Source: a virus
Lineage: Duplodnaviria; Heunggongvirae; Uroviricota; Caudoviricetes
Reading direction: 5' to 3' (one strand)
DNA length: 64,000 nt
Virus record (IMG/VR): IMGVR_UViG_2541047850_000005
Coordinates: 1 to 64,000 of that record
The notes beneath the pieces are model-generated. The model did not search any database, had not been told where the DNA came from, and saw only the letters and a program-made list of their open reading frames with translations. Position 1 is the stretch's first letter, and every line of letters begins with the position of its first letter. Both the position numbers and the translations under genes were made by a program. This document shows, piece by piece, positions 9,876 through 62,799 of this stretch.

Positions 9876-11909
9876 TTACTTAACCTGGTGACCAGGTTTA
9901 GCACCAGCATCCGGGCTTAACAGGAAGATATCTTTCCCACCAGGACCAGCAGCCATCACCATGCCTTCTGAGATACCGAAACGCATTTTACGCGGAGCCA
10001 GGTTAGCCACCATAATGGTGTGACGACCAATCAGTGCCTGTGGGTCTGGATAAGCAGAACGAATGCCGGAGAAGACATTACGCTTTTCCCCACCGAGATC
10101 CAGTGTCAGACGCAGCAGTTTGTCAGAGCCTTCAACAAACTCCGCGTTTTCAATCAGCGCCACACGCAGGTCAACTTTGGCGAAGTCGTCAAAGGTGATG
10201 GTTTCCTGAATCGGGTCGTCAGCCAGTGGGCCAGTTACCGGTGCGGCTGTGGCTTTCACTTCTTCTTTGGATGCTTCCACCAGTGCTTCCACCTGTTTCA
10301 TATCGATGCGGTTATACAGCGCCTTGAACGGATTCACTTTGTGGCCCAGCAGCGGTTGCTGGATACCATCCCAGGTCAGTTCTGTATTGAGGAATGCTTC
10401 TGCGCGCTCGGTCAGTTTCGGCAGTACCGGTTTCAGGTAAGTCATCAGCACGCGGAACAGGTTAATGCCCATAGAGCAAATCGCCTGCAGATCGGCATCG
10501 CGACCTTCCTGCTTCGCCACCACCCACGGAGCCTGTTCATCGACATAGCGGTTAGCCAGGTCAGCCAGTGCCATGATTTCACGGATAGCTTTACCAAATT
10601 CGCGGCTTTCCCATGCTTCGCCAATCACTTCAGCGGCATCAGTAAAGGTTTTGTACAGTTGCGGGTCAGCCAGTTCGCTTGCCAGCACGCCGTCAAAACG
10701 CTTGTTGATAAAGCCTGCATTACGGGAGGCCAGGTTAACCACTTTGTTCACGATATCGGCATTCACTCGCTGAACGAAATCTTCCAGGTTGAGATCGATA
10801 TCATCAATGCGCGAAGAGAGTTTCGCAGTGTAGTAGTAACGCAGGCTGTCGGCGTCAAAATGATTCAGCCAGGTGCTGGCTTTAATGAACGTGCCGCGAG
10901 ACTTGGACATCTTCGCACCGTTCACCGTCACATAGCCATGAACAAACAGGTTGGTCGGCTTGCGGAAGTTGCTGCCTTCCAGCATGGCAGGCCAGAACAG
11001 GCTGTGGAAGTAAACGATATCTTTACCGATGAAGTGGTACAGCTCGGCGGTGGAGTCTTTCTTCCAGTATTCATCGAAGCTGGAGGTGTCGCCGCGTTTG
11101 TCGCACAGATTCTTGAAGGAACCCATGTAGCCAATCGGCGCGTCCAGCCAGACGTAGAAATATTTGCCCGGCGCGTTCGGAATTTCAAAACCGAAATAAG
11201 GGGCGTCGCGGGAGATATCCCACTGTTGCAGGCCAGATTCAAACCACTCCTGCATTTTATTTGCCACCTGCTCCTGCAACGCACCGCTGCGGGTCCATGC
11301 CTGCAGCATTTCGCTGAAAGAAGGCAGATCAAAGAAGAAGTGTTCGGAATCACGCATTACCGGCGTAGCACCAGAAACTACCGATTTCGGCTCGATCAGT
11401 TCAGTCGGGCTGTAAGTCGCGCCGCAGACTTCACAGTTATCGCCGTATTGATCTGGCGCTTTACATTTAGGGCAGGTGCCTTTTACAAAACGGTCCGGCA
11501 GGAACATGCCTTTTTCCGGGTCGTATAACTGAGAGATGGTGCGGTTTTTAATAAAACCGTTCTCTTTCAGGCGAGTATAAATAAGCTCGGACAACTGACG
11601 GTTCTCTTCGCTGTGCGTCGAGTGATAGTTGTCATAGCTGATGTTAAAGCCTGCAAAATCAGTCTGGTGTTCCTGACTCATTTCGCCAATCATCTGTTCC
11701 GGTGTGATACCAAGCTGCTGTGCTTTCAGCATGATCGGTGTGCCGTGGGCATCGTCGGCACAGATGAAATTAACCTCGTGGCCGCGCATTCGCTGGTAAC
11801 GAACCCAGACATCAGCCTGGATGTGCTCCAGCATATGGCCGAGGTGGATTGAGCCGTTAGCGTACGGCAGCGCGCACGTCACCAGAATTTTCTTCGCGAC
11901 TTGGGTCAT
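9876..11909 (-). CDS. metG: methionine--tRNA ligase
   Basis: 677-aa product starting [26 protein letters not shown] (HIGH motif), KMSKS motif, C-terminal tRNA-binding domain; track ORF extends upstream of the true ATG. Confidence 0.95.
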
Positions 11910-12066
11910 AGTAGGCATTACTTCTTTGTAGTGAAAAGGGGCTTGATAGTAACAAAATGGCCTTATGTCTGCCATGTGATAACAGCATTTCTCATAAATG
12001 ATTAAATGCCGTAGCTGGAGTACACTACAAGGCGACAATTGCGCAAATTAAAATAAAGGAGACGGG

Positions 12067-13167
12067 ATGAGCGAGTCCAAATCGCCGGATGCCCTGAGAG
12101 CAATGGTAGCCGGTACGCTGGCTAATTTTCAGCACCCAACCCTGAAACACAACCTGACTACGCTTAAAGCGTTACACCATGTTGCGTTGATGGATGACAC
12201 ACTGCATGTCGAACTAATCATGCCTTTCGTGTGGAATAAGCCTTTTGAAGACCTGAAAGAGCAATGTAGTGGTGATCTGCTCCGTATCACTGGCGCAAAG
12301 GCTATCGACTGGAAGCTGTCGTACAACATTGCCACGCTTAAGCGCGTCAAAAACCAACCAGGCATTAATGGCGTTAAGAACATTATCGCCGTCAGCTCAG
12401 GCAAGGGCGGCGTTGGTAAATCCTCCACGGCGGTAAACCTGGCACTGGCGTTGGCTGCTGAAGGTGCGAAAGTTGGTATTTTGGATGCCGATATCTACGG
12501 GCCATCAATTCCAACCATGCTTGGCGCGGAAAACCAACGTCCAACCTCACCGGACGGTACTCACATGGCACCGATTATGTCTCATGGACTGGCAACCAAT
12601 TCAATTGGTTATCTGGTAACTGACGACAATGCGATGGTGTGGCGTGGTCCGATGGCGAGCAAGGCGTTAATGCAGATGTTGCAGGAAACTCTATGGCCTG
12701 ATCTGGACTATCTCGTTCTCGATATGCCGCCGGGTACTGGTGATATTCAGCTGACGCTGGCGCAGAACATTCCTGTAACTGGTGCTGTTGTGGTAACTAC
12801 GCCGCAAGATATCGCGCTGATCGATGCGAAGAAAGGCATTGTGATGTTCGAAAAAGTCGAAGTGCCGGTACTGGGTATCGTCGAAAACATGAGTGTGCAT
12901 ATTTGCAGTAACTGCGGTCATCACGAGCCAATTTTTGGCACCGGTGGCGCACAGAAACTGGCCGAGAAATACAACACGCAGTTGTTAGGCCAAATGCCAC
13001 TTCATATCTCTCTTCGTGAAGATCTGGATAACGGAACACCAACCGTTATTAGTCGTCCAGATAGCGAATTTACGGCTATTTATCGTGACCTTGCAGATCG
13101 CGTTGCTGCCCAAATGTATTGGCAAGGTGAAGTAATACCTGGCGAAATCGCATTCCGCGCAGTGTGA
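12067..13167 (+). CDS. apbC: Fe-S cluster carrier ATPase ApbC/Mrp
   Basis: P-loop SSGKGGVGKSSTAVNLA, CxxC motif (HICSNCGH), divergent from metG as in enterobacteria. Confidence 0.9.
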   Translation: MSESKSPDALRAMVAGTLANFQHPTLKHNLTTLKALHHVALMDDTLHVELIMPFVWNKPFEDLKEQCSGDLLRITGAKAIDWKLSYNIATLKRVKNQPGINGVKNIIAVSSGKGGVGKSSTAVNLALALAAEGAKVGILDADIYGPSIPTMLGAENQRPTSPDGTHMAPIMSHGLATNSIGYLVTDDNAMVWRGPMASKALMQMLQETLWPDLDYLVLDMPPGTGDIQLTLAQNIPVTGAVVVTTPQDIALIDAKKGIVMFEKVEVPVLGIVENMSVHICSNCGHHEPIFGTGGAQKLAEKYNTQLLGQMPLHISLREDLDNGTPTVISRPDSEFTAIYRDLADRVAAQMYWQGEVIPGEIAFRAV

Positions 13168-26556: not shown

Positions 26557-27150
26557 CTAAGCAGCCTTCTTTGATGCTCTTTTTTTTCTGACCACATTCG
26601 CAGGATCATACCCTCCCAGACTTTTCATGACGTCCAAAGGGATCTTGCTTATAGAGTGCCCAGCGTCCTGACAGAATCCTCGAAAAACAACGAGCATACT
26701 GCCACCGGGGTTGATGTTTACTTCTACCTGACCCAAATTGACGTCAGGCTCGACAAACGCTACGCGGCCACCAGACAGAATAATCGTCTCATTCGCATAC
26801 TCTGTTGCACGCTCATACCACTTTGTATCGAGGGATTGAGGAATTAGCATCACTGTTGTAACTCCGCGAGCCTGCTCACGTATAGCCGCATCAATCCAGG
26901 GGGAGATTTTGGAGTAGGGTGGATTGAGGAAGGCAATTGTACCTGGCTGCCCCCATTCAGATTTCAAAGCATCGCGCTCAACGCCTATGAAAATAGGCAG
27001 CTTTGCATTGTCCTTGTTGCAGGCAACGTCAACATCAAATGTCACTCCAAGATAACGTTGAATGGCAGAAAACAGCCAATCAGGTGTTCTCCAGAGATCA
27101 CGAAGAGAGTTGTCGCGCTTTCGCTGTTTGATTTTTTCGGCTGCAATCAT
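26557..27150 (-). CDS. phage-type DNA N6-adenine methyltransferase (Dam-like)
   Basis: ..IAFLNPPYSKISPWI.. (NPPY catalytic motif) in a ~200-aa protein, typical of small phage Dam enzymes. Confidence 0.8.
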   Translation of the reverse strand: MIAAEKIKQRKRDNSLRDLWRTPDWLFSAIQRYLGVTFDVDVACNKDNAKLPIFIGVERDALKSEWGQPGTIAFLNPPYSKISPWIDAAIREQARGVTTVMLIPQSLDTKWYERATEYANETIILSGGRVAFVEPDVNLGQVEVNINPGGSMLVVFRGFCQDAGHSISKIPLDVMKSLGGYDPANVVRKKRASKKAA

Positions 27151-29351: not shown

Positions 29352-29996
29352 CTAATGAACGGTCACTCGGCCACAGAACCGGTTTTCTATCTTTTCTACA
29401 GCGTTATCTAGCACTCTCATCACTGATCTGGCTCTTGCTTCAACCGTGCGATATCGGTTGGAAACGACGAAGGTTTGCAGATCCCCCCTTTGCGGATGCA
29501 GGTGAATTTTTGTCAGTTCCCCGCACATCAACGCATCAATACGAGCGACATACAGACGGTCTAATGATGCTCGTTGTGATCGCAAGTAATCTCGCTCTGA
29601 GAGAGCGACTCCCGGGCGTAGGCCAGCAATGGCGTTAAAGTTTGAAATAGCAGTTTTGTGGCAAAACTTTTCGATATCGAGGGCTAACTCAATACATCGA
29701 TCTTCATTGGTATGGCCGACCAAATCCAACGTGTAGGCCATAACATCAGCAGGTGTGCGATCGATAACAAAGCCTTCAACACCACGCGTAAGTAGCTCTA
29801 TATGCTTTGCTATTTCCATTTGAATCTGAAGCCGCTCATATAGAGGCATAGACTCACCTACTCGAACACCGAGTCGGCTCATCAAACTTCCGACACCAGC
29901 ATCCACGTAAGGGATTCCGTAATGTTTGTCGATATATTTTGCCAGGGTTGTTTTCCCACTGCCCTGAGCACCAGTGATCCCAATCCGGTAATCCAT
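29352..29996 (-). CDS. P-loop nucleotide kinase (dNMP kinase-like)
   Basis: Walker A GITGAQGSGKTT at N-terminus, 214 aa; sits in nucleotide-metabolism operon. Confidence 0.7.
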   Translation of the reverse strand: MDYRIGITGAQGSGKTTLAKYIDKHYGIPYVDAGVGSLMSRLGVRVGESMPLYERLQIQMEIAKHIELLTRGVEGFVIDRTPADVMAYTLDLVGHTNEDRCIELALDIEKFCHKTAISNFNAIAGLRPGVALSERDYLRSQRASLDRLYVARIDALMCGELTKIHLHPQRGDLQTFVVSNRYRTVEARARSVMRVLDNAVEKIENRFCGRVTVH

Positions 29997-30472
29997 TACG
30001 ACCTTCTGTATACGATCTGCGAAAAGCCAGGCTCTTCCTCGCTGGCTCGTTGGGTAAAAACTGTTTCAACAGGCACAAAGCCTAAATTACGCATCATGCT
30101 TGCCGGGAAGAATGCATCGGCGTTTGGCACATCAACGCCGATGTGGGAGAGCCAAATCTCTTCAACATGCGGCATGAATAGCGAGTAAATTTGTTCCCCG
30201 CCAATCACCCACACAGGCTCTGGTAATCGCAACACATCATCCACACCAGCAGGGTAGAATCCATTTGGTACAAAGCCATGAGAGCGCGTCAAAACGAGGT
30301 TATGACGCTCTGGAAGAGGGCGTTTGAGACTTTCCATCGTTTTACGCCCCATAACGACAGTGGCGTTTTTGGTGAGTCTCTTAAATAGCTTCAGATCGGT
30401 AGAACAACGCCAGGGCAGTTCGTTCGCTATGCCGATCTCATAGTTACGGCCAACAGCAGCTATCATCTTCAT
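29996..30472 (-). CDS. dihydrofolate reductase
   Basis: MIAAVGRNYEIG..LPW.. N-terminal DHFR signature, 158 aa; adjacent to thymidylate synthase. Confidence 0.85.
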   Translation of the reverse strand: MKMIAAVGRNYEIGIANELPWRCSTDLKLFKRLTKNATVVMGRKTMESLKRPLPERHNLVLTRSHGFVPNGFYPAGVDDVLRLPEPVWVIGGEQIYSLFMPHVEEIWLSHIGVDVPNADAFFPASMMRNLGFVPVETVFTQRASEEEPGFSQIVYRRS

Positions 30473-30870
30473 TTGCTCACCTCATAGATGACCGGTCTAT
30501 GATGAGAGTCAGCTAAAGCGGCACGGAGTCGAGGATCGTGCACCAGCGCAGCGATAAGCAGATCGCCTTTATGCTCCGCTAATGTGCGCTTAATATGCTT
30601 CTCATAACTGGTGCCATTCGGTACGAGATGAAGCCAGTCGTAATCAACGCCAAAATCTTTCAGCCATCGTTTAGTGGGCGCTTCAAGAGTTTCAGAGCGG
30701 CTACTGATAAGCACCACTTCAGCCCCTGAGCGAGCAAAACCACGCAACATACGGCTGGTGGGGAAAATGAGTTCATCACCGGCAATGAGCTGGTCTGCAT
30801 CCGTGTCAGGTACAGATTTACGATGGCTGGTATTTGCCAGCACACCTTCAATTTCGCATAAGACATACAT
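30469..30870 (-). CDS. hypothetical protein (133 aa; start MYVLCEIEGV), possible degenerate HAD-like fold
   Basis: track ORF overlaps thyA stop; internal ATG with AAGAGG RBS chosen. Confidence 0.45.
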   Translation of the reverse strand: MYVLCEIEGVLANTSHRKSVPDTDADQLIAGDELIFPTSRMLRGFARSGAEVVLISSRSETLEAPTKRWLKDFGVDYDWLHLVPNGTSYEKHIKRTLAEHKGDLLIAALVHDPRLRAALADSHHRPVIYEVSK

Positions 30871-30883
30871 ACCTCTTGCCATA

Positions 30884-31987
30884 TCACACCGCCACTGGAA
30901 CCTTGATCCACGGTAGAGGGTCATAGCCAAGAATCAGAATATCGTCCCATTTGAAATCATCCAGCTCAGACCATTCATGAGGGAAAATAACGACCGGATC
31001 TGAATGCTCTGGAGCCTGTCGTTTCATTAGCTCACACACACCTTCCATGTGGTTGTTGTACAAATGCACGTCAAAGCCAAAATGCACAAATGCACCGGCC
31101 ATGTGACCCGTAATCTTCGCGAGAAAATGAGTGAGAATGCCATAGCCAGCAATATTGAATGGCATACCAACAAAAGTGTCTACGCTACGCTGTACGAGGC
31201 AGGAGTTGAGGATGCGTTTGGGGATTCCAAGTTCATCCAGTTCAGTTTCAGTAACACTGCCGTCCATCTCCAGATCGTATAGCATCTTGGTGTAGATAGA
31301 CTCATAACCGAGGCGACTGTGTTGAAGACCAATGTCAGTTGCCATCGTTAAACGGGTTTCAAAATCAAGCTCACGACTCCACAAAGAGAAGACAAAGTGG
31401 CAAGGTGGCAGTTTCATATCCTCAAGCTCGCCTACGTTCCATGCGTTAAGCATGATGCGACGATCGGTAGGGTTCGTGCGCAGTGTGTCGACAATACGCT
31501 GTAGCTGATCGATTTCACGGGACAGCACTACGCGATCTTCACTGATACCCAGGTATCCCTCGACTTTGTACCCGCGTTCACGGAAAGTAGCGATCTTGCT
31601 CAGATATTCACTATGGCTCACGATGCGGGTATCTTCCCATCGACGCCACTGCTTACCGTAAACCGGCCCCAAATCGCCATTCTCATCGGCCCATGCATCC
31701 CAAATCTTAACGCCGTTATCCTTAAGAAATTGGATGTTGCCCGTGCCTTTCAGATACCACTCAAGTTCGACAAGCAGTGGTTTAAGATTTACCGCCTTTC
31801 CAGAAATAAGCGGCACAGTCCCACCAGTAAGCATGTAGTAAGAGGGAACGTAGCAGGTGCTTAAAGTACCAGTGCCTGTGCGATCATCAGTCTGCACGCC
31901 GCTTTTAAGCACCGTCTCAATAACTTTTGCATACGATGCGTTTGTTACCTGACCGTTCGTATGCTCACGATTCAAAAGGAGTGACAT
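30884..31987 (-). CDS. thyA: thymidylate synthase (ThyA family) with ~80-aa internal insertion
   Basis: DDRTGTGT, GDLGPVYGKQWRRW, DRRIMLNAWNVGEL, PPCH (catalytic Cys), QRS.D..VGMPFNIA; 367 aa versus ~264 for bacterial ThyA. Confidence 0.9.
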   Translation of the reverse strand: MSLLLNREHTNGQVTNASYAKVIETVLKSGVQTDDRTGTGTLSTCYVPSYYMLTGGTVPLISGKAVNLKPLLVELEWYLKGTGNIQFLKDNGVKIWDAWADENGDLGPVYGKQWRRWEDTRIVSHSEYLSKIATFRERGYKVEGYLGISEDRVVLSREIDQLQRIVDTLRTNPTDRRIMLNAWNVGELEDMKLPPCHFVFSLWSRELDFETRLTMATDIGLQHSRLGYESIYTKMLYDLEMDGSVTETELDELGIPKRILNSCLVQRSVDTFVGMPFNIAGYGILTHFLAKITGHMAGAFVHFGFDVHLYNNHMEGVCELMKRQAPEHSDPVVIFPHEWSELDDFKWDDILILGYDPLPWIKVPVAV

Positions 31988-32069
31988 AAAACCTCACGAA
32001 GATAAGTAATCAATTATTTATCACGTGAGTTTACATTCATTGATAACACAAGACCAGATAGATAAAAAA

Positions 32070-32105
32070 TGGTGGCCATAGGCCACCAAAAAGAATAGTC
32101 GCTCC
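32070..32105 (-). terminator. rho-independent terminator (TGGTGGCC-ata-GGCCACCA + T6)
   Basis: hairpin followed by TTTTTT on the minus strand downstream of 32155..33024. Confidence 0.5.
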
Positions 32106-32154
32106 AGAGTTTTATACGCAAATCAAATATACATTAGTAGATAATCACCTACAA

Positions 32155-33024
32155 TTATTTTTTGATCATTCCGTACATTGCTGAGGCTTTAGCTTGCTCA
32201 ACAAAGGAGGATAAATCGACATCACTATAGGTTGGAGACTTCAGAATCTTTCCATCGGAAATTCGAAAACCGATCATCTTATCGGTGCCATCAGCATGGC
32301 GGAATCCCAGATCTGAAGAGTCGTATTTGCAGTTGGCCACAGCCTGGCGACGTTCCTCGACATCAGCAGGCCATAATTTTGTCATGTTAGACCGATGAAT
32401 TTCGCCAACCAGCTCGACTACATTGATACCGAGGAAATCAGCCAGTCGATAGGTCATCATGCACGCCACATAGATTTTGTTCATGACACGGCGCAGTTCC
32501 TGAATCAGCTCAGAATCCTTAACAGTCTTGTTCTCAAGTTTATCTGCCAGCTCTTCGAGCATACATGACGCCTCACGAGCTTCCTGAAATGGCATTGCCA
32601 TATCATCGAAAACAGTGTTACCGGGCACAAAAATTGTCTGCATAAAGCGATCAATGCTCTGTTCCTGCGTGTAATAGGTCATGCCGGTAGAAATACCACC
32701 TTTGATGGCGACCATCGTACCAACACCAACGTATAAAAAGTCGGCCATTGCATCCAGCAGTTGCTCAATATCCCCATTCATTGCAGCTGGAATACCTTCC
32801 ACTACAGCTTCTTCATGAATCAGGCTTGCACGGAGACGAAGCAGCTCTGGTGTCGGCATAACGCGTCTCGGATGCTGGAAGAGTTCATGAAACTGATCGA
32901 CCATCTTGTAAATACTTTCAGTAGCTACACCATGACCTTCATGCAACTCATATGGTTCTGGCTTAAATCCAATGAGACGATCGGTGGCAAGTTTCAGGTG
33001 GTCAGTCAGTTTGGTAAAGTTCAT
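32155..33024 (-). CDS. hypothetical protein, possibly all-alpha NTP pyrophosphohydrolase (MazG/HisE-like)
   Basis: 289 aa from ATG MNFTKLTDH (AAGGAAC RBS); ..LIHEEAVVEGIP..DIEQLLDAMADFLY.. resembles the EExxE..D motif; weak. Confidence 0.45.
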   Translation of the reverse strand: MNFTKLTDHLKLATDRLIGFKPEPYELHEGHGVATESIYKMVDQFHELFQHPRRVMPTPELLRLRASLIHEEAVVEGIPAAMNGDIEQLLDAMADFLYVGVGTMVAIKGGISTGMTYYTQEQSIDRFMQTIFVPGNTVFDDMAMPFQEAREASCMLEELADKLENKTVKDSELIQELRRVMNKIYVACMMTYRLADFLGINVVELVGEIHRSNMTKLWPADVEERRQAVANCKYDSSDLGFRHADGTDKMIGFRISDGKILKSPTYSDVDLSSFVEQAKASAMYGMIKK

Positions 33025-33101
33025 GCTAGTTTTGTTCCTTCTTAATTCTTGTGATCCATTGTGGCCCAGCGTTGCCAGGCCACATAATGCTTTGTATCGG
33101 T

Positions 33102-34244
33102 TTACAGGTCTGCAAACTGGCTTAGAGAAGCCTTGTCCACGGTAGAATCGATCTGACCTACCAGATATGTGCTTTGCTCTGCCTCTTGTGGTGCAATTTG
33201 CAGTGTGTCGGTTAACAACCACTTGTTCATCCAGACCAGCGGATCGGTGGTAACCTCTGGAAATAAAGCCTTCAGGCCAAGACGATTCATAGCCAGATTG
33301 GTGCGGTATTTTACATAGGTCTTCAAAATATCCGCGTTTAAACCAATCATCGAACCGTCTTTGAAGAGATACTCGGCCCAGTTCATTTCTTGTTCGGCGA
33401 CTGATTTCATGGTGTCGTAAATGACGTTTTCTTCATCAGCAGCAATCTCTTTCCACAATAAACCTTCGCGACCGGTACGCATGAAGCGGATCATGCGTTC
33501 AGTTCCTTCGCAATGCAGAGCTTCATCACGGGCAATAAAGCGCATAATTTTGGTGTTACCCTCAAGCAACTTCCGTTCGCCAAAGGCAAACGTACATGCA
33601 AAACTTACATAGAAACGGATCGCCTCAAGCGCATTAATGGACACCAACGTGCGGAAAAGCTGACGGTGCAAAGGGTATGGCTCCCAGCCATATTCATTTA
33701 CGTACAGACGTTCAAACTCCTTCTCACCTAACGACTGGCGCTCGCAGGTCATCCCATAAAGCCTGTCATATTCAGCAGAGATACTGATCGCTCGGTTGAT
33801 GATTTCTTCATCCGTAACAATACCGTCAAAAACAATGCTCGGATCGTCCACCATGCCACGAATAATGTGGGTGTAGCTGCGGCTATGGATAGTCTCAGAG
33901 AAAGACCATGTTTCAACCCACGTTTCCAGTTCAGGAATAGAGATAAGCGGCAGCAGCGTTGCATTTGGGCTACGTCCCTGAACTGAATCGAGTAACGTTT
34001 GATAACGGAGATTGCTCAGAAAAATGTGACGTTCGTGGTCCCGCAGCTTCGTGTTGAAGTCGATACGATCGCTCGAAATATCAACTTCTTCCGGCCGCCA
34101 GAAGAAAGACAATTGACGTTCAATCAACTTTTCAAAATCACGGTATTTTTGCTGATCGTAACGTGCCACGTTGACAGATTGTCCGAGGAACATAGGCTCT
34201 TTGGTTGCATCATTAGCACCCAAACGGAACGTTGAATATGACAT
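33102..34244 (-). CDS. nrdB: ribonucleotide reductase class Ia small subunit
   Basis: ferritin-like di-iron motifs (..[15 protein letters not shown].., ..DEALHCEG..), C-terminal tail for R1 binding; start at ATG MSYSTF. Confidence 0.9.
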
Positions 34245-34349
34245 GTGTTTTTCCTTTTGCTTTTTGATGTGTTTAAACAAGTTGTTATCCTATTTGTTTA
34301 AACAAGGCTTACAAATCAAAGAGAAGGTGGGGATACACCCCACCATATG

Positions 34350-36665
34350 TCAGATTTTGCAGGCTCCGTCGCACTCATCTTCTGGCTCGACGGCTACAGC
34401 TTGCGTCAGTGGATTCTGCGGTTCGTCGTCATCACGCTTTCCTGCCCCATCTCTGGTGTTGTGGTAGTAAAGCGTTTTAACTCCCATCTTGTAGGCGAGA
34501 AGCAAATCTGACAGTAGCGTCATCATTGGGACTTTATCGTCTTCAAAGCGAGAAGGGTCATAGTTGGTATTGGCCGAAATAGCCTGGTCAAAGAACTTCT
34601 GGATGATCGCCACCTTTGTCAGATAGCCGCGGTTGTCCGGCATATCCCACAGGTATTCATACTGTTCCTTCAGTTTTTCAAACTCAGGCACGACCATCTT
34701 AACGATGCCGTCCTTAGAAGATTTCACCGACACCGGTCCACGAGGCGGTTCGATGCCGTTTGTGGAATTAGTGATCTGGCTGGAAGTCTCGCATGGCATT
34801 TGTGCCGTCAGTGTGGAGTTGCGAAGACCGTATTTTGCAATACGTTCACGCAGTTCTTCCCACGGCATCTTTAACTCAAAGTTGGTTTCGCCACTTTCGT
34901 CTAATGAAGAACGATAGTGGTCGATCGGCAACTGACCAATTGCGTACTTGGTCTGCTCAAACCAGTCACACTCACCTTTTGCTTCAGCAAGTCGGCAGCT
35001 GGCATCAAGAAGGTAATACTGGATAGCTTCGAACGTTTCATGCACCAGTTTATTGCCAGCGGTATCAGAATAACGAACGCCATTCTTTGCCAGGTAATAA
35101 GCAAAGTTGGTTACACCGATTCCCAGGCTACGACGAGCTTTGGCAGGCACTTCAGCTGCCTCCATCGGATAGTCTTGATAATCCAGTAACGAATCCAGTG
35201 CAGCAACGGCATAGAACGCCACCTCTTTAAGAGACTCCAGTGAACGGATGGCTCCGAGGTTAAAAGCGGATAAAGTGCAAAGCGCGATCTCACCGTTCGG
35301 GTCGTCGGTAAATGCCAGTGGACGAGTGGGTAGAGTGATCTCCATGCACAGGTTTGACTGGCGAACAGGTGCAAGAGCAGGAATGAAAGCGCCATGCTCA
35401 TTAATATGATCGACGTTCGCAATATAAATTCGGCCAGTGGACGCTCGTTCCTGCATCAGAGATGAAAACAGCTCAATGGCAGGCACTGACTTCTTGCGAA
35501 TTGAATCATCGGCTTCGTATTTATGGTACAGCTTTTCAAACAGATCTTGGTCTGTGAAAAAGGCTTCGTACATATCAGGCACATCATGCGGGCTGAACAG
35601 AGTGATGTTCTCGCTTCTGACGAGTCGACGGTACATCAGACGGTTACTCATGACGCCGTAATCAAGATGGCGAACGCGGTTTTCATCGATACCACGGTTA
35701 TTTTTCACCACCAGCAGACTTTCAACTTCAAGATGCCAGATCGGGTAAAACGCTGTTGCTGCGCCACCACGAACACCACCTTGCGAGCAAGATTTAACAG
35801 CAGTCTGGAAATGCTTCAGGAATGGAATAACTCCGGTATGGGTGGCTTCACCATTGCGGATCTCACTGCCCAGCGCACGGATACGGCCAAAACCAATACC
35901 AATTCCAGCACGACGTGAAACGTAGTCGATAATTGCGGCTGAAGCTGCACTAATACCTTTCAGACTATCGCCAGACTCAATCAGCACACAACTGGAGAAC
36001 TGACGGGTTGGAGTACGGACGCCGACCATGATTGGTGTGGGCAGAGACAGTTTGAACGTACTTGTAACGTCATAGAAACCTTTGACCATCTCCATACGTG
36101 TTTTGCCAGCGCAGTCGTCTTCCCAATTCTGGAACAGACACATGCCCACCAGCATATAGATATGTTGCGGCCCCTCATGAATCTCACCAGTAACACGGTT
36201 TTGAACGAGGTATTTGCTTTGCAACTGCGCCGTAGCTGCATAGCCAAAAAGATCGTCACGTTTCGGCTTAATGTAATTGCCGAGTTCTTCGATCTCTTCA
36301 AACGAATAATGTGTCAGCAAATCCTTGTCATAAACGCCCTTGTTAACGTTCTTGACAATGTGTTGGTAGAAGTTCGGATAGTCGTAACGACCGAAGGCAT
36401 CTTTGCGGATTTTAAAAATGTTCAGGCGGGCAGCCACCTGCGAGTAATTTGGTGCATCTGGTGAGATCAAATCAGCGGCAGATTTAACCAAAGCCTCATG
36501 CAACTGGCTGGTGGTAATCCCATCAAAAATGCTGGCCGCAGCTCCCATTGCTACAGCGGATGCGCTTACACCACGAATGCCTTCTACGCCATACATTACG
36601 ACGCGGTTGTATTTTTCTTCGGATAACGGCTCTGTTTGGCCGTTACGTTTTACGATGCTTATCAT
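34350..36665 (-). CDS. nrdA: ribonucleotide reductase class Ia large subunit
   Basis: N-terminal ATP-cone (VKRNGQTEPL..), catalytic-site Cys motifs, C-terminal CxxC (..ECDGACKI); 771 aa. Confidence 0.95.
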   Translation of the reverse strand: MISIVKRNGQTEPLSEEKYNRVVMYGVEGIRGVSASAVAMGAAASIFDGITTSQLHEALVKSAADLISPDAPNYSQVAARLNIFKIRKDAFGRYDYPNFYQHIVKNVNKGVYDKDLLTHYSFEEIEELGNYIKPKRDDLFGYAATAQLQSKYLVQNRVTGEIHEGPQHIYMLVGMCLFQNWEDDCAGKTRMEMVKGFYDVTSTFKLSLPTPIMVGVRTPTRQFSSCVLIESGDSLKGISAASAAIIDYVSRRAGIGIGFGRIRALGSEIRNGEATHTGVIPFLKHFQTAVKSCSQGGVRGGAATAFYPIWHLEVESLLVVKNNRGIDENRVRHLDYGVMSNRLMYRRLVRSENITLFSPHDVPDMYEAFFTDQDLFEKLYHKYEADDSIRKKSVPAIELFSSLMQERASTGRIYIANVDHINEHGAFIPALAPVRQSNLCMEITLPTRPLAFTDDPNGEIALCTLSAFNLGAIRSLESLKEVAFYAVAALDSLLDYQDYPMEAAEVPAKARRSLGIGVTNFAYYLAKNGVRYSDTAGNKLVHETFEAIQYYLLDASCRLAEAKGECDWFEQTKYAIGQLPIDHYRSSLDESGETNFELKMPWEELRERIAKYGLRNSTLTAQMPCETSSQITNSTNGIEPPRGPVSVKSSKDGIVKMVVPEFEKLKEQYEYLWDMPDNRGYLTKVAIIQKFFDQAISANTNYDPSRFEDDKVPMMTLLSDLLLAYKMGVKTLYYHNTRDGAGKRDDDEPQNPLTQAVAVEPEDECDGACKI

Positions 36666-36738
36666 GTATCACCAAATAAAGAGGGCCACTAAATATAGTG
36701 GCCCATGTTAATAGATAAGCACCTACCTATCAATGAAA

Positions 36739-42356: not shown

Positions 42357-42395
42357 CTGTAAGCCGCGCCACGACTGGTCTGAAGCCATGTTCAT

Positions 42396-42497
42396 GTATG
42401 CTGTCAGCGGTAATTGATAGTCTGTCAGCGGTTCACCGTATGCTGCCAACTGTTTTTGGTATTCTGTCAGCGGCAAATCAAGTATGCTGTCAGCGGT
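42396..42497. repeat. iteron cluster upstream of repA (about 4 copies of TATGCTGTCAGCGGT-like 15-mer)
   Basis: direct repeats at ~42398, 42421, 42461, 42483. Confidence 0.8.
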
Positions 42498-42517
42498 TGA
42501 ATGACAAAGGTGTCCAC

Positions 42518-43612
42518 ATGTCCACAAAAAATAAAAAAGGTAAAAATAACAAAGAAGTAGAAGATAACATCGACAACTTTGAAGAAGGTTCCCTTGAATT
42601 GTACACAGGGGAACTTGTCCCTAATAGCAACAATACAGTCCAACCAATTGCGTTGATGCGACTGGGGTTGTTCGTCCCCACGCTTAAGGGAACAAAATAC
42701 AGTAAACGTAACAAGCCAAATGAGATCGATGCTTCAAAGGAGCTTGTCCAGCTCGAAGTAGCCCGTTCTGAAGGCTATTCCGATATCAAGATAACCGGTC
42801 CTCGTCTCGACATGGATCATGATTTCAAAACGTGGGTGGGCGTTGTGCGTTCGCTGGCAGAATACGGCGAACCTAATGGTCGTGTCGAGTTAAGCATCAC
42901 GAAATTTGCGAAGTTTTGTGGCTATCCATCGTCACAGATCCGCAAAACACTCCGCGACCGGCTTACAAACAGTCTTTTGAAGATCATGCGTACAACTCTG
43001 TCTTTCCAGAGAACGTATGAAGAAAAGAACGTCGACGGCTCTAACAAGATCTCGCTTCTGATGGTGCACCTCATCAATAGCGTGGACTACAACGAGCAGA
43101 AAGATACGGTGGTGTTCTATGCAGAACCGAAGCTGGCCGAACTATATCGCTTTGACCATAAGGTTCTTTTGCAGTTAAAGGTTATCAATAAGCTACCACG
43201 CAAAGAAACAGCACAGGCTCTGTACACCTTCATCGAAAGTCTTCCAACCAAGCCTGCGCCGGTATCGCTTGCTCGATTGCGTGCGCGACTCAATTTGAGT
43301 AGCAGGAATGTCAGCTCGCAGAATCAGACTATACGTAACGGCTTAAAAGCTCTCCAAGATTTGGGCTATCTCGAATACAGCGAGATTAAGCGTGGGCGGT
43401 CGATCTATATCCAGATTCACAGCCGCAATCCAAAACTCAAAGTCGCACCGCCAAAACCTGAAGACATCGAACCCAAAAAACCAGATGAGAAAGCTGGGGA
43501 AATTGATGCCAAACAGAACATTATCAACAAGATAACCGAACTTTCGCAGAATTTGACGCCTGAAAATATCAAGATGATTGAGATCCTTTCCAATAGTCTC
43601 AAACTGCTTTGA
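42518..43612 (+). CDS. repA: iteron-type plasmid replication initiator (RepA/RepE-like)
   Basis: 364-aa basic protein flanked on both sides by iteron arrays; start set at ATG MSTKNKKGK (track ORF runs through the upstream iterons). Confidence 0.7.
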   Translation: MSTKNKKGKNNKEVEDNIDNFEEGSLELYTGELVPNSNNTVQPIALMRLGLFVPTLKGTKYSKRNKPNEIDASKELVQLEVARSEGYSDIKITGPRLDMDHDFKTWVGVVRSLAEYGEPNGRVELSITKFAKFCGYPSSQIRKTLRDRLTNSLLKIMRTTLSFQRTYEEKNVDGSNKISLLMVHLINSVDYNEQKDTVVFYAEPKLAELYRFDHKVLLQLKVINKLPRKETAQALYTFIESLPTKPAPVSLARLRARLNLSSRNVSSQNQTIRNGLKALQDLGYLEYSEIKRGRSIYIQIHSRNPKLKVAPPKPEDIEPKKPDEKAGEIDAKQNIINKITELSQNLTPENIKMIEILSNSLKLL

Positions 43613-46930: not shown

Positions 46931-49270
46931 TTACTCTTCTACTGACTCGGTGGGGTTGTCTTTTGCTCTTCGGTCGTCGATTGCCTGCAAAGCCGCAATG
47001 ATTTCAGCCAGTGGCTTCTCCCGATACATCTCGACGATCTGCGATTTGGTGTATTTCTTGTCACCAATTTCAACTCGCCCGCTGGCGTTCTTTGGCAGGT
47101 ATCCTTCTTCCAGCATGTACTCGACGAGCGATTCGATAACGTCGAGGCCACGAGTAGGATCGAAGTAGAATTTCCAGGTGCATTTGCCATACGGTGGTGC
47201 AACTTTGTTTTTGATGCATTCTGCGCCTACGTCCTGGCCGATCTTCTCTTTACCATCCTTCATCACCGATGCACCAAGACGGATACGTACAGAAGCGTAG
47301 AACTTCGGTGAATCTCCACCTGGCGACGTAGTAGGGTCGCCAAACATTACACCGATTTTTGTGCGAACCTGATTCAAGAAGATGATGCAGGCGTTGTATT
47401 TGCGTGCCCACAAAGCCAGAGTAGGGAAGTTCGCACTTGTCGCACGAGCCAGTGCCGTATTGTCGTTCATGTTTAGCTGATCTTTGTCTTTGGCAGTGCC
47501 TTCAGCCATCTTTTCGAACTTCTCGGCTTTGGAGTTCGGAACCATAGACGCAAGTGAGTCAGCCACGATACAGATAGGTGCTGATTCAGGAATAAGCTCT
47601 TCATCACGTACCAATTTAAGAATTGTGCCGATCAACTCTACAGAGTCTTCGAAGGTATCAGGCTGCTTGTATACCCACTGACCGTCATCCTCATCTGCGT
47701 TCAGGCCATTGGCTACAGCCAGGCCAACGTCAAAACTGTTTTCATGATCGAGGAATACCGCCAGACCATCTTGTTTTTGAGCGGAGATCATCGCTGCTGT
47801 TGCAAGGAATGTGTTGTGGCTGATAATCCCGTTAGACCAGAAAGAGTGTGTTTCCGGCATCGCTACGTCGAACGTTGGTGCTTCACCTTCCTCAATAGCC
47901 ACGACTTCGTCGTAGAATAAGTTAGAGCCAATTACCGCTGCCAGTTGTGCAAACAGATGCTCGTTAAAACGATTCTTTCTGCCAATGAAGGAGACATAGA
48001 TTTCTCGCAGTTTGTCTATTCCGACACGATCGCCGCGGCCAATAACGTGGTCTACCAGAGCGTAGTCTTCACGGGTGGTCTTGGTGAGCGACTCGTAGAG
48101 TGATTTCACTAAGCCGCTGATGTGCGGAACATAGCCTGAGTAAGTGCGGTCAAAACCAATGTCCCGTTTGGTTGCCACTGATAAACGTGCCGGAGATTCG
48201 AAACCAATCGTTGACAGAAAAAGGTCGTAATTAGAGCCACTGAATGACAGCCGGTAATATGTATTTTCATAACCCGCGACGTGTTTTTCAGAGATAGTTG
48301 ACGTAATCCCCAGATTCAGGAGCATGAGGCGAATTTGCTGTAGCAGCAGCCCACTCGCGCTCACAACCTCAATGCAGCGACCACCATTGACGTGGCATTC
48401 CAGCTCAAAGTAGCCGCGAAGGAATGCAATTTGAGCCTCGCTATTGGCGCGACGCACACTCAACGGAACCTGCTTGCCAGCAGCTTTCTCATACTCCAGA
48501 CCATATTCTTTAAAAAGCAGCGAACGCACCTCTTTGCTAAACAGCACATGGTCTTCCGAGCCGTTATGTTTTCTCGTAACTGGCATCTTGTCTGATACCA
48601 GCGAAATGAGGCGGTAGTACTCATCCTTGATGAATGGATCTGTGTTAGAAAAATGCACAGAATTTTCAGAGGCCACGTATCCGTCAGCAATTAAATAGCC
48701 CATCAGTTTTGCGATATTGGCATCCAAGTGCTGATCGCCGAATTGATGTGTGCCAACCATTGAAGGAATCGTGTCGCCTACACTGATTTTTTCAGCATAC
48801 CGCCAGACGATATTGCCTAAGTCGTCAACCACACGAATTGGGTGACGGAACGTAGCCTCGATGTAACCCCCTGATGCCAGCTTAATGCGCTTGAATTTGC
48901 GACGGTTGTTCCATGTCAGGTGTGAGGTTTTCTCTATCACGCCATTTTCATTGATGAGTCCAACGTTATGCTCTACATCGCGAGTAGTGCATGTTGCTTT
49001 GTGCCCCTCAATCTCAAACAGTTCTTTCACTGTTACCATTCCACGCTCCGTCAGCAGCATGGTGTCTGCGGTAACACATTTCCCCGCACTTGGAGGACCG
49101 AATACTTCGACGATACGACCACATGGGAAACCGCCATCGTAACGACCGGAAATCGCTTTGTTTAACGGAGGAAAGCCTGTGTCAATCCAATGAGTTACTT
49201 TCTGAATTTCGTCGTTGCTACCGATTTTCTTTTTCAGAGCAAGTGCCAGTGCGGATTTTCCTTTTGCCAT
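46931..49270 (-). CDS. recA: RecA-family recombinase interrupted by a 422-aa intein
   Basis: exteins align by eye with E. coli RecA (RIVEVFGPPSAGK|T.., ..IIFLNQVRTKIGVMFGDPTTSPGGDSPKFYASVRIRL..); extein total ~357 aa. Confidence 0.85.
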   Translation of the reverse strand: MAKGKSALALALKKKIGSNDEIQKVTHWIDTGFPPLNKAISGRYDGGFPCGRIVEVFGPPSAGKCVTADTMLLTERGMVTVKELFEIEGHKATCTTRDVEHNVGLINENGVIEKTSHLTWNNRRKFKRIKLASGGYIEATFRHPIRVVDDLGNIVWRYAEKISVGDTIPSMVGTHQFGDQHLDANIAKLMGYLIADGYVASENSVHFSNTDPFIKDEYYRLISLVSDKMPVTRKHNGSEDHVLFSKEVRSLLFKEYGLEYEKAAGKQVPLSVRRANSEAQIAFLRGYFELECHVNGGRCIEVVSASGLLLQQIRLMLLNLGITSTISEKHVAGYENTYYRLSFSGSNYDLFLSTIGFESPARLSVATKRDIGFDRTYSGYVPHISGLVKSLYESLTKTTREDYALVDHVIGRGDRVGIDKLREIYVSFIGRKNRFNEHLFAQLAAVIGSNLFYDEVVAIEEGEAPTFDVAMPETHSFWSNGIISHNTFLATAAMISAQKQDGLAVFLDHENSFDVGLAVANGLNADEDDGQWVYKQPDTFEDSVELIGTILKLVRDEELIPESAPICIVADSLASMVPNSKAEKFEKMAEGTAKDKDQLNMNDNTALARATSANFPTLALWARKYNACIIFLNQVRTKIGVMFGDPTTSPGGDSPKFYASVRIRLGASVMKDGKEKIGQDVGAECIKNKVAPPYGKCTWKFYFDPTRGLDVIESLVEYMLEEGYLPKNASGRVEIGDKKYTKSQIVEMYREKPLAEIIAALQAIDDRRAKDNPTESVEE
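47813..49078 (-). other. intein with LAGLIDADG homing-endonuclease domain inserted in the RecA P-loop (between K64 and T+1)
   Basis: starts with Cys (CVTADTML), ends ..IISHN followed by Thr; LAGLIDADG-like motifs LMGYLIADGYV and AFLRGYFELECH. Confidence 0.75.
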
Positions 49271-52246: not shown

Positions 52247-55200
52247 TCACGACTTAATAGTTTCTGCTACGTCGGCTAATATCGCTTCTAGTCGTTCTCC
52301 CTCTTCAGGTCTGAAGTAAAGAATGTTGGGGTTAAACCCGTAAAAGACAGTAACGTCAAGGTCTGGAAGATACTCCTTCCTGCCGACCAAATCGGATGGC
52401 TTGTTTTTGTTGTTAAACAATGCCGTTGCCCGGCTGCCACACGTCAGCACATAGGTCGGACGCACCAGATTGATCTCTTCACGTATAAAGTCGGTGAACT
52501 GGCCGATCTCGTCTTTGGTGTAGTCTTTTTCTTTGTCTTTAACCTTCTTGCAAACGCCTGTGACATAGAGATCGCCCATGCGTAAATCTCCAGCCGTCAA
52601 TAGCTTGGCCTTAAAGTCGTCGTATCCGTTCTCCATAAAGTAACCTGTTCGAGCATCATTGCCGTTCGCATTGTCCAGAATGATCATGATTTTCGGCTTA
52701 ATACCAATGCTGGGGCGGATTAGTTCATCACCTAAGCCCATTTCAGCCGCCATCCGTGTCATGAGCACGTTAATCTCAGCCGAACGTTTGGGGTTCATCT
52801 CAAACGGACGTGAGGCTTTAACTGCGTCTATGACAAGATTTCCCATCAATTCCGCTTGGTCGCGGAGACGTTCTGGATCAGTTGCTGGCAGACTACCTGG
52901 CTCGATGGATGCAAACGCACCTACTTTTCGCAGTGATTCGCGCACTCGACTATTACAGGCACGTTTCTCGACAGCTTCTTCGAATTGCGCCAGTGACTCG
53001 AATTTGCCGCCAACTTTTTCTCGCGCTCTCATGATGGCTTGGCAGCCATTCTCAGAACACCCCTTCACAGCAGAGAAGGGTGCATACAGAACCTGGCTGC
53101 CATCTTCAAGCGTGCGGATCTCGATTCGGTTAGATGACACGTTAACGTCTGGTGGCAATACGCGAATACCATAGGTCAGCGCATCTTTAACCAGCCCTTG
53201 GTGTTTATCTTCGCCAAGAATAGTGAGAGCAGCAGCGAAAAACTCTGCGGGATAATGAGTTTTCAACCACATAGATTGATAACTGATTAAGGAGTAAGCA
53301 ACAGAGTGTGATTTGTTGAACTGGTAGGCACCATTTTTTTCGAATGCGGTCCAGATCTCCTTCGCTTTCATCTCTGATAGGCCAGGATGTGACGCTGTAA
53401 CGCGTACTGCGTTTATAGGTAGTTTTGCGCCGTGCTCAAGTGCCTCTTCGACAGTTTTCAGAGTTCCGTCTTCGCATTTAAAATGTTCCGCACGGTGAAT
53501 GCGCTGTGTAGTGCCATCTTCCAGCTCAACGTCTATCCAGCCAGCTTGAGCCTGAACGATGAACTTCTCGCCCATGCTCTTCATTTTTTCCATGTTCTTC
53601 TTACCGATTGCGGAACGCACACCGTCAGCTTCAGCCATTGTGAAGCCGGCAAGCAATCGAGTCGCGTTCATCGTCTGTTCCTGATAGAGAATCACGCCAT
53701 TTGTTTCCGCGGTAAGTTCATCAAGAACGGGGTGTAATGATTCCGGCGTCATAAAGCCTTTGGCGACAGAAACATAGTCATCCAACATGCCTGATTGAAT
53801 TGGCCCCGGCCGGAAGAGCGCAGTTGTAGCGACGACCGTTTTAAAGCTCATTGGCTCAATTCCACCACCTAAATCTTTAAGCAGCTTGCGCATTGGGCCT
53901 GATTCAAGCTGGAAAACACCTTGAGTGTACCCAGCAGCAAAACCATCCAGTACCTTGCGATCTTCAAGAGAAATGGCATCAAGATTGATATCCTCACCTG
54001 TGTTCTCTTTAATGTAGCGTTTTGCACTATCGAGCAAATCGAGAGTCGCCAGGCCAAGTACATCCAGCTTAATTAGGCCCATAGCCTCGCAGTAACGCTT
54101 GTCAAATGCGATACAACGCGCGTCACCACGGCGTTCAACCGGTGTACGTTCTGTCAAGGGAACACCTGCTACGATCATCCCTGCCGCATGTCTGCCAAAG
54201 CCACGCATAATGCTTTGTAACTTACAGGCTGCATTGAATGCATCAGGATATTTTGTCGCGTATTTGTCGAGACTTGCTAGTTGTTCGCGCAGCTCTTCCA
54301 ATGGAAGGCTATCATCCTCGACGTTCTTCAGTTCTTTTGATACCGCCATATCCGCAGCATCGACACCGTAAATACGCGCAGTGTCACGCAGCGCAGAAGC
54401 AGCGCCCAGATAGGTGAAGTTCGGAATACCGGCAACGTAATCTTCGCCATAGCGTTCATTCAGATACTCGATCACCTCATGACGACGTGCCTGACTGAAG
54501 TCTAAATCAGCATCCGGCAAGTCGAGACGCTCAGGGTTGATGAAACGCTCAAACAGAAGACCGTGACGGATTGGGTCGACGTTGGTTATGCCTATGCACC
54601 ACGCCACCAGAGAACCGGCAGAGGAACCACGACCAGGCCCAACGGGAATGCCAGTTTCACGACTATGATTCATCAGATCGCGCACCATCAGGAAGTAACC
54701 ACAGAATCCCAGGCGAGTCAGCGTGTCCATTTCGTACTTTAGCCGCTCAACATAAACCCTGTTCTCAGAAGCAGGTGGTGTGTATCCAAACTCTTTTGTG
54801 GTAAGACGTTTACGCAGCCCTGCAACAGCCAGTTTCATCAGCGTTGCAGGTTCGTCGTCTGCCATCTTGGGCAGTGCTGGTGGCAATTCATGCCAGCGCC
54901 ATGTGCAGGCATCGATAATGGTATCCTGCGTTGTTGAGGCCATTGCAGCTGTTACCGGCACATCCATGCGAACGGAGAAGGCTTTAAGCGACTCAAGGAG
55001 ATGGCGGCGACCATTGACGGCGTTATCTCGCTGGTGGGGGATACGCAGACGATGCGGCTGGTCGATTTTTATGTTGTTCGTAACCATGTGCGCAATGTCT
55101 TTAATGTCTGCATCGTCGATCGATTCGTAATAAGCGGGATAGAACGCTACTGGCTCTATTTTCAGTGCGCTGGCTACTTTCATCGCTCGGACGTTAATCT

Positions 55201-57181: not shown

Positions 57182-57276
57182 GCGTTTTTCCTTTGTTTTC
57201 TAATGAGCTTTCAACTTCTTATATAAATATACCATCAAATATCGTAAGTGATTACTTATCATTAAGGCTATTCTAA

Positions 57277-62743: not shown

Positions 62744-62799
62744 GCAAATTTTTATATTACCACACCATGATTATGATGTGGTACATACTATATGAATAT

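Follow-up and report, generated by a model that had tools for sequence, protein, structure and literature searches.

The long ThyA of an SSU5-type phage-plasmid is predicted to be a canonical thymidylate synthase with two folded inserts, encoded in an ordinary deoxynucleotide-supply block

A block of seven genes at positions 29352-36665 of a 64,000-nucleotide stretch of viral DNA (IMG/VR virus record IMGVR_UViG_2541047850_000005, positions 1 to 64,000; the whole stretch is called the window here) includes a gene for a ThyA homolog that is considerably longer than Escherichia coli ThyA. The question raised by this locus is whether the long ThyA is a thymidylate synthase (TS), or whether it hydroxymethylates deoxyuridine or deoxycytidine monophosphate (dUMP or dCMP) and thereby begins a base-modification pathway, as a preliminary description of this DNA had considered. 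We find that the region is very probably an ordinary deoxynucleotide-supply block of an SSU5-type phage-plasmid, and that its ThyA is in all likelihood canonical. The gene in question is the following.

30884 to 31987, minus strand: thyA, 367 amino acids (aa), ThyA-type thymidylate synthase.

ThyA matches the TS family PF00303 with an E value of 2.4e-79 (266.7 bits against a cutoff of 24.3) and passes the equivalog model TIGR03284 (222.7 bits against a cutoff of 108.35). It falls below the cutoffs of the narrower NF0024xx TS models because the inserts described below split the match. HMMER matches ThyA to E. coli TS at 7.6e-61, with approximately 48% identity across the aligned core. By blastp, the match to E. 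coli TS is 1e-64, as compared to 5e-5 for the T4 dCMP hydroxymethylase gp42 (over 75 residues), 1.5e-4 for M6 gp58 and 0.02 for SPO1 gp29.

An alignment with TS and with dUMP and dCMP hydroxymethylases had been proposed in the preliminary description as a check, and we used for it the window ThyA, E. coli ThyA, T4 gp42, SPO1 gp29 (annotated as a dUMP hydroxymethylase) and M6 gp58, a TS homolog that adjoins the thymidine-hypermodification genes of phage M6 (PMC8989533). We checked 21 positions, which in E. coli numbering are R21, E58, W80, W83, Y94, R126, R127, L143, C146, H147, Q165, R166, S167, D169, F176, N177, H207, Y209 and V262-A263-I/V264. The window ThyA has the E. coli TS state at these positions, with a single conservative change (I264V), and thus sits with TS at all of the discriminating ones. 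The PPCH motif noted earlier is present at residues 194-197, and the nucleophile pair Cys146-His147 corresponds to C196 and H197. Likewise, the dUMP phosphate ligands R21, R126', R127', R166 and S167 are R36, R176, R177, R267 and S268 of the window protein, and N177, the pyrimidine-specificity residue, is Asn278 and is invariant in the family. Asn or Asp at position 177 is an established determinant of pyrimidine specificity (PMC8670742). The uracil-specificity pair N177/D169 and the general acid/base residues E58, Y94, H207 and Y209 are all present, the folate-binding and solvent-excluding residues W80, W83, L143 and F176 are all kept, and the C-terminus, PVAV, is in the same register as the site-closing V-A-I carboxylate of the E. 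coli enzyme. Across 49 long and short TS homologs, R21, E58, W80, W83, Y94, R126, R127, C146, H147, R166, S167, D169, N177, H207 and Y209 are invariant.

In contrast, SPO1 gp29, M6 gp58 and T4 gp42 each depart from TS at seven or more of the 21 positions. As members of the TS superfamily, SPO1 gp29 and M6 gp58 retain the catalytic Cys, E58, Y94, R166, S167, D169, N177, H207 and Y209, but they lack W80 and W83, carry D143, N147, N165 and A176, and differ from TS at the C-terminus; at none of these positions does the window ThyA depart from TS. T4 gp42 also belongs to the superfamily and keeps the catalytic Cys, but it has D177 and lacks R21, W83, H147, Q165 and the TS C-terminus. Because the catalytic, substrate-specificity and hydride-transfer residues and the closing C-terminus are intact, we strongly infer from the sequence that the window ThyA is a canonical thymidylate synthase; a role in making modified bases appears very unlikely on the same grounds.

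The preliminary description had allowed that ThyA could equally be an ordinary TS with a decorating insert, and had put the extra length at about 100 aa with an insertion of about 80 aa. The TS part is supported and the extra length is borne out (103 aa more than E. coli ThyA), but the single insertion is not. The HMMER alignment to solved TS breaks into three blocks, which pair residues 18-118, 156-203 and 261-367 of the query with residues 3-102, 107-154 and 161-264 of the E. coli enzyme; the extra length is therefore made up of an N-terminal extension of 15 aa and two inserts, both of which appear as alignment gaps relative to E. coli TS.

31523 to 31633, minus strand: ThyA insert 1, residues 119-155, a net gain of about 34 residues in the variable small-domain region.
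31208 to 31378, minus strand: ThyA insert 2, residues 204-260, a net gain of about 51 residues at the beta-hairpin after the catalytic-Cys strand.

An AlphaFold2 model of ThyA built from the 49 homologs has a predicted local distance difference test score (pLDDT) of 94.3 and a predicted template modelling score of 0.92. In the model, insert 1 forms a small beta-meander and two short helices with pLDDT above 90, and insert 2 forms three helices. When the model is compared by Foldseek with ternary complexes of E. coli TS, the template modelling score is 0.94 normalised to the target but 0.68 normalised to the query (TMq), with an E value of 1e-31. These two values indicate that the modelled core has a standard TS fold, with inserts that are absent from every solved TS.

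Both inserts are real protein segments under purifying selection. Among the window, SSU5 and pJN2-26, non-synonymous divergence (pN) in the inserts is 0.03-0.25 and synonymous divergence (pS) is 0.57-0.95; for insert 2, pN is 0.11-0.16 and pS is 0.79-0.86. The non-synonymous divergence of the inserts ranges from similar to that of the core up to about twice that of the core, with synonymous sites saturated. We considered an intron or intein origin and rejected it, since the reading frame is continuous, pN is low against saturated pS, and the inserts are folded in the model; for an intein, moreover, they are too small and lack intein motifs. A mobile or independent domain was likewise rejected for insert 2, whose segment profile matches essentially TS only: built from 16 sequences and searched against 1.84 billion representatives, it found five proteins, four of them TS or frameshifted TS and the fifth a weakly matching, unrelated repeat protein. 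Nor does the T4 enzyme provide a precedent for insert 2, as the reconstructed T4 td product has a short hairpin like that of E. coli. The T4 TS is 286 aa long, lacks insert 2, and is encoded by an intron-split gene. The two inserts are lineage-specific surface modules that leave the chemistry-determining residues of ThyA unaltered.

The remaining genes of the block, together with hairpin and promoter calls that are matches to consensus patterns, are as follows.

36705 to 36733, minus strand: promoter-like site just upstream of nrdA (consensus match only).
36683 to 36704, minus strand: terminator-like hairpin just upstream of nrdA (consensus match only).
34350 to 36665, minus strand: nrdA, 771 aa, class Ia ribonucleotide reductase (RNR) alpha subunit with an N-terminal ATP-cone.
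33102 to 34244, minus strand: nrdB, 380 aa from the ATG at 34244, class Ia RNR beta subunit.
32155 to 33024, minus strand: MazG-like gene, 289 aa, all-alpha nucleoside triphosphate (NTP) pyrophosphohydrolase-like protein.
32070 to 32088, minus strand: terminator-like hairpin between the MazG-like gene and thyA, GC-rich, with eight pairs (six of them G-C) followed by TTTTTT.
30469 to 30882, minus strand: HAD/PNKP-phosphatase-like open reading frame (ORF), 137 aa, with a degenerate nucleophile motif.
29996 to 30472, minus strand: dfr, 158 aa, dihydrofolate reductase (DHFR) of the DfrA51 family.
29352 to 29996, minus strand: P-loop kinase-like gene, 214 aa, nucleoside/nucleotide-kinase-like.

The starts given for the MazG-like, nrdB and HAD-like genes differ from those of the longest ORFs, and the nrdB start is the one annotated in Cyrano and SSU5. 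As described earlier, the seven genes are co-oriented, all lying on the minus strand between 29352 and 36665, and each has a family match. The likeness to T4 also holds, in that T4 likewise carries its genes for DHFR, TS and class Ia RNR in one orientation (frd-td-nrdA-nrdB), where they serve phage deoxynucleoside triphosphate (dNTP) synthesis. T4 alone has the gp42 dCMP hydroxymethylase, the gp56 dCTPase and glucosyltransferases elsewhere in its genome, and none of these has a counterpart in the window. Two terms of the preliminary description need revision. The block does not appear to be one operon, because a strong terminator-like hairpin stands between the MazG-like gene and thyA and others flank nrdA; two or three transcription units are more likely, judging from these predicted elements. 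Nor is "self-contained" warranted, as nucleoside diphosphate (NDP) kinase, serine hydroxymethyltransferase, dCMP/dCTP deaminase and redoxin genes were not seen in the window. The genes thyA, HAD-like, dfr and kinase are tightly packed, with a 1-nucleotide gap followed by overlaps of 4 nucleotides and 1 nucleotide, and this cassette is probably translationally coupled.

The RNR assignments are firm at the family level. NrdA matches PF02867 (1.6e-131), PF00317 and PF03477, scores 1301 bits against a cutoff of 813 for the equivalog NF006578, and is 86% identical to SSU5_078. NrdB matches PF00268 (5.5e-46) and scores 608 bits against a cutoff of 346 for NF006576. DHFR matches PF00186 (2.9e-34) and narrowly passes the NCBIfam DfrA51 model NF047324, scoring 334.1 bits where 322 are required; A6, I13, D26 and S48 are present, and identity to the SSU5 DfrA51 is 89%.

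The possible MazG-like gene of the preliminary description does have a PF01503 family match (2.2e-8, 34.8 bits against a cutoff of 21.3), and its product also matches phrog_671 (1.8e-49). Its best solved relative is DR2231 of Deinococcus radiodurans, a weak match of 5.8e-5 with the family profile. DR2231 has been cited as MazG-like and capable of dUTP cleavage (PMC5122711). The two proteins have in common an EE motif, an ADxLYV helix and an EVHRxNxxK motif, and residues E71, E76, D95 and the H210-R-S-N-M-x-K216 motif are invariant in the window family, with E72 also conserved. From its primary paper, DR2231 is reportedly specific for dUTP. DR2231 has 154 aa, whereas the window protein has 289, with an internal insertion of about 80 aa and a conserved C-terminal domain. 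Like ThyA, therefore, the MazG-like protein is expanded: the insertion lies within the four-helix core, and the protein is about twice the length of a single-domain MazG. Its C-terminal region is highly conserved, with the motif IG(F/Y)RxSDGKILKSPTY, and has no family match. This long form is restricted to SSU5-type elements. We also considered the protein as a dCTPase of the gp56 type and rejected this, as no similarity between its family and T4 gp56 could be detected. Its sequence suggests that it would convert dUTP, or another dNTP, to the corresponding monophosphate and pyrophosphate.

The kinase-like protein matches PF13521 (2.1e-9), and its fold is closest to the small-molecule kinases NadR-RNK, dNK and TMPK. 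As a candidate 5-hydroxymethyldeoxyuridine (5-hmdU) DNA kinase (5-HMUDK) it was rejected: the family profile aligns to M6 gp54 with 8 bits over 23 P-loop residues only, and the protein has no match to the Pfam family of such kinases. The HAD-like ORF matches PF25109 below the gathering score (8.9e-5), phrog_5387 (3.8e-89) and phrog_415 (8e-10). That it is degenerate, as first described, is evident from its nucleophile motif: instead of DxDG, the proteins of the window, SSU5 and pJN2-26 have EIEG and that of Xenorhabdus has TIDG; DLDG occurs in a distant orthologue only. Two of the loci in this motif comparison are the following.

8137 to 8574 of L008: HAD-like orthologue.
8095 to 8532 of L009: HAD-like orthologue.

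In the window lineage the HAD-like protein has lost the Asp nucleophile and probably does not act as a phosphatase; it may be a pseudo-enzyme. Despite the decaying motif, the gene stays conserved and packed between thyA and dfr.

What, then, of the base-modification pathway? One alternative has ThyA as a dUMP hydroxymethylase that makes 5-hmdUMP, with the kinase and the MazG-like protein pushing 5-hmdU into DNA, excluding dTTP and initiating thymidine hypermodification. In its favour, dUMP hydroxymethylases already known are long TS homologs as well (383 aa for SPO1 gp29 and 351 aa for M6 gp58), and such pathways use helpers of the kinds encoded here, namely kinase, phosphatase-like protein and NTP pyrophosphohydrolase (PMC8989533). 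The shared length does not connect these proteins to the window ThyA, because gp29 and gp58 owe theirs to long, unrelated C-terminal extensions and not to internal inserts, whereas the extra length of ThyA is internal and N-terminal. ThyA has no hydroxymethylase-type substitution, keeps the TS C-terminus, and is far closer to E. coli TS than to gp29 or gp58 by blastp. The helper genes fare no better, and the proposal that the kinase and pyrophosphohydrolase act as hypermodification partners does not hold up, given that the kinase resembles 5-HMUDK at the P-loop only, that the MazG-like family is dissimilar to gp56, that the HAD-like ORF lacks the Asp nucleophile, and that the window yielded no modification genes. 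In a Pfam scan of 47 window ORFs there was no match to 5-HMUDK, aGPT-Pplase, glycosyltransferase, dCMP deaminase, trimeric dUTPase or TET/JBP families, nor to the hydroxymethylase partners AADT and dTMPase/dTTPase; a Dam-family methylase (26557-27150) and a DUF4942 protein were the sole DNA-modification genes seen. The presence of DHFR also bears on the choice. TS produces dihydrofolate, whereas hydroxymethylases release tetrahydrofolate and need no DHFR. The dfr gene lies two genes downstream of thyA and accompanies the long ThyA in every relative examined, and its conservation in the packed cassette favours TS because an enzyme that produces dihydrofolate needs DHFR; next to a hydroxymethylase it would be pointless. 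Taken together, we regard a dUMP hydroxymethylase as very improbable here. A dCMP methylase or hydroxymethylase like T4 gp42, making 5-modified cytosine, is more improbable still. It shares a protein superfamily with ThyA, and the T4 pathway includes MazG-superfamily dCTPases, but position 177 is Asn and not Asp, the MazG-like family shows no similarity to gp56, and no glucosyltransferase or other gene for decorating 5-hydroxymethylcytosine was found in the window.

Several points do weigh against assigning the block to ordinary dNTP supply with a canonical ThyA. The residues that discriminate TS from dUMP hydroxymethylase are empirical and come from three hydroxymethylase sequences, and a TS-like active site that still admits water may be compatible with the sequence. 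The searchable literature yielded no enzymatic or genetic test of any long-form ThyA, that of the window included. Many small ORFs of the window have no family match, so that the lack of modification genes is absence of evidence and not proof; the whole element is 108 kb, and the approximately 44 kb beyond the window (the structural half) were judged, for modification genes as well, by record annotation only. The substrate of the kinase, whether dTMP, another deoxynucleoside monophosphate (dNMP) or a deoxynucleoside, is a weak prediction from its fold. In the second metal motif (ExxD) of the MazG-like protein, an invariant Ala92 stands in place of Glu79 of DR2231, with D91 and D95 nearby. Lastly, the approximately 85 net residues of the inserts are conserved, and a plain TS leaves them without explanation.

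It is possible, though we think it unlikely, that ThyA is a catalytically normal TS whose inserts confer a second role, such as the docking of other products of the block (the HAD-like protein, DHFR, the kinase or RNR) into a complex for dTMP or dNTP synthesis, an extension of the dimer interface, or nucleic-acid binding. This concerns the inserts only and is compatible with dNTP supply as the function of the block. The confident folding of the inserts in the AlphaFold2 model, the purifying selection on them, their retention across Enterobacterales phage-plasmids with shorter or longer forms in jumbo-phage TS, and the tight packing of the four cassette genes are all consistent with such a role. 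It has no direct interaction evidence behind it, however; the insert sequences have no homolog outside TS from which a function could be transferred, and their length and sequence vary widely by lineage, as would be the case for tolerated surface decoration. A paper on the structure of T4 TS is said to discuss surface insertions in relation to the dNTP-synthetase complex. A more specific version, which we consider doubtful and less probable than a second role of any kind, is that thymidylate is made by a co-translated complex of the insert-bearing ThyA with DHFR, the kinase and the catalytically degenerate HAD-like protein, in which the inserts serve for docking and dUMP is channelled through dTMP to dTDP for the replisome of the element. 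If this were true, the complex would be a defined, minimal phage dNTP-synthetase complex.

Returning to dNTP supply by a canonical TS, the following pathway would account for the block. NrdAB, for which equivalog-level matches make a strong case, would reduce NDPs to dNDPs. The MazG-like protein would most likely hydrolyse dUTP to dUMP and pyrophosphate, to go by its weak similarity to DR2231, thereby feeding TS and keeping uracil out of DNA. In ThyA, Cys196 is strongly predicted to attack C6 of dUMP, upon which the methylene of methylenetetrahydrofolate would be transferred to C5 and reduced to a methyl group by hydride from the folate, yielding dTMP and dihydrofolate. The DHFR packed into the same cassette would regenerate tetrahydrofolate, and the kinase would probably, on weak evidence as to its substrate, phosphorylate dTMP, another dNMP or a deoxynucleoside. 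The block as a whole would boost the dNTPs, and dTTP especially, that the DnaE-type polymerase of the element uses to replicate its 108 kb.

The adjacent DHFR has been examined in related elements. SSU5 dfrA51 raises the trimethoprim minimum inhibitory concentration to 256-512 mg/L (PMC12217456), and since it confers resistance, the SSU5 orthologue is an active DHFR. An SSU5-like DHFR from E. coli O104:H4 gave no resistance, and such genes were concluded to serve deoxynucleotide synthesis (PMC7725336). These two reports are in conflict on trimethoprim resistance from the SSU5-type DHFRs of E. coli, and automatic antimicrobial-resistance calls on SSU5-type plasmids may overstate resistance. The disputed clinical meaning of the DfrA51 family in this respect is one reason for continuing interest in the block.

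The block is an already catalogued dNTP/thymidylate supply module. Its order (nrdA, nrdB, pyrophosphohydrolase, thyA, small ORF, dfr, AAA-family ATPase) is identical in SSU5 (SSU5_078-084), PhiR41_1, Cyrano and pJN2-26, whose records already label the long ThyA gene thymidylate synthase, and it recurs in one Xenorhabdus contig and one metagenomic contig, where ThyA is only 50-55% identical to that of the window. The proteins of the SSU5 block are 80-89% identical to those of the window, with no difference of substance. The related Salmonella Typhi plasmid pHCM2 is said to have been noted for such genes two decades ago. We see the value of the present analysis mainly in correct annotation of the nucleotide-supply genes of a phage-plasmid family that is very common in Enterobacterales: ThyA should be annotated as a true thymidylate synthase and not as a base-modification enzyme.

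Long ThyA proteins (350-378 aa) with both inserts are found on contigs of approximately 100-120 kb from Salmonella, Klebsiella, Raoultella, Enterobacter, Providencia, Morganella and Xenorhabdus. Identity falls to 38-41% for the next relatives, which are jumbo-phage TS (for example those of SPN3US, CR5 and Erwinia phages) and TS of 324-354 aa from metagenomes; these have shorter insertions at the same two sites. The anchor motifs of insert 2, (S/T)xE(L/M)xxxER ... (I/V)P(K/R)R, are common to these TS and the window ThyA, whereas the jumbo-phage TS, which in the SPN3US/Erwinia group are approximately 340-355 aa long, have inserts of other lengths and sequences. BFVD models of longer jumbo-phage TS (201phi2-1, 457 aa) have TMq values of 0.82-0.86 to the window ThyA, as compared to 0.68 for E. 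coli TS. Insert-bearing TS is therefore recurrent in large phages and not singular to the window. A non-exhaustive literature search on the thymidylate synthase and ribonucleotide reductase of SSU5 and pHCM2 gave no study of the long ThyA and no paper discussing TS inserts. The remaining interest of ThyA is as a phage-restricted TS subfamily with two folded inserts, shared with jumbo phages and having no solved structure. In jumbo-phage records (for example SPN3US NC_027402, 197588-198646), the tblastn match of ThyA often spans two annotated features, labelled thymidylate synthase and hypothetical protein, and once restriction endonuclease, which suggests that thyA is split, mis-called or interrupted in those records.

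The identity of the element follows from nucleotide comparison of the 7.3-kb region. Across its entire length, this region shows 99.9% identity with Escherichia phage PhiR41_1; the values are 99.3% and 98.0% for two phage-plasmid records labelled 'CMS-2020a', 98.5% for phage Cyrano and 76.5% for Salmonella phage SSU5. Because of these matches, we assign the window to an SSU5-type E. coli phage-plasmid. The thyA-HAD DNA segment is matched in 372 PLSDB plasmids, mostly of approximately 110 kb and non-mobilizable, from Escherichia, Enterobacter, Salmonella, Citrobacter and Cronobacter. The flanks are consistent with an SSU5-type element. They encode a Rep3-type RepA with iteron-like repeats; replication and recombination proteins (DnaE-type Pol III alpha, gp32-like SSB, UvsX/RecA, UvsY and SbcCD); and the nucleic-acid enzymes RuvC-like resolvase, RNase H, epsilon-like exonuclease and Dam methylase. 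Scans of the window for tRNA genes and Rfam families gave zero matches.

Several other features of the window were observed. At 42392-42497 there are 2.5 copies of a 42-nucleotide iteron-like repeat containing TGTCAGCGG, and the longest ORF for RepA (Rep3-type; 42398-43612, plus strand) overlaps these repeats at its 5' end. They are likely to mark the origin of the plasmid, with repA itself probably starting further downstream, past the repeats. The RecA/UvsX-like recombinase gene at 46931-49270 (minus strand, 779 aa) is split by an intein with a LAGLIDADG homing-endonuclease domain; the Intein_splicing match covers residues 73-486, LAGLIDADG_3 residues 279-356 and RecA residues 484-703. The segment at 55946-59385 (minus strand) lies directly downstream of the gene for DnaE-type Pol III alpha (52247-55765) and encodes a CobS-like ATPase (AAA_5) paired with a CobT-like VWA protein; the 'cobalamin enzymes' label that this pair bears in deposited records is probably a misnomer.

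Three further loci resemble acquired genes. A full-length methionyl-tRNA synthetase with catalytic, anticodon-binding and C-terminal tRNA-binding domains is encoded at 9876-11975 (minus strand), divergent from a gene for an Mrp/ApbC-type P-loop ATPase (PF10609) at 12067-13167 (plus strand), a pairing that we take to mirror the host metG/mrp arrangement; it may be a chromosomal locus captured by the phage-plasmid. At 781-3726 (plus strand), an IS3-family transposase gene (rve, HTH_21) adjoins one for an FljA-like 'repressor of phase-1 flagellin' (PF03614, 1.3e-68), and this patch, with a low GC content of 0.39, looks like inserted cargo. At the end of the window (61961-63975, minus strand), where the GC content falls to 0.34, genes for an AraC-family regulator and a PapC-type fimbrial usher are chaperone-usher fimbrial cargo of the phage-plasmid, and the usher ORF may extend past the window end.

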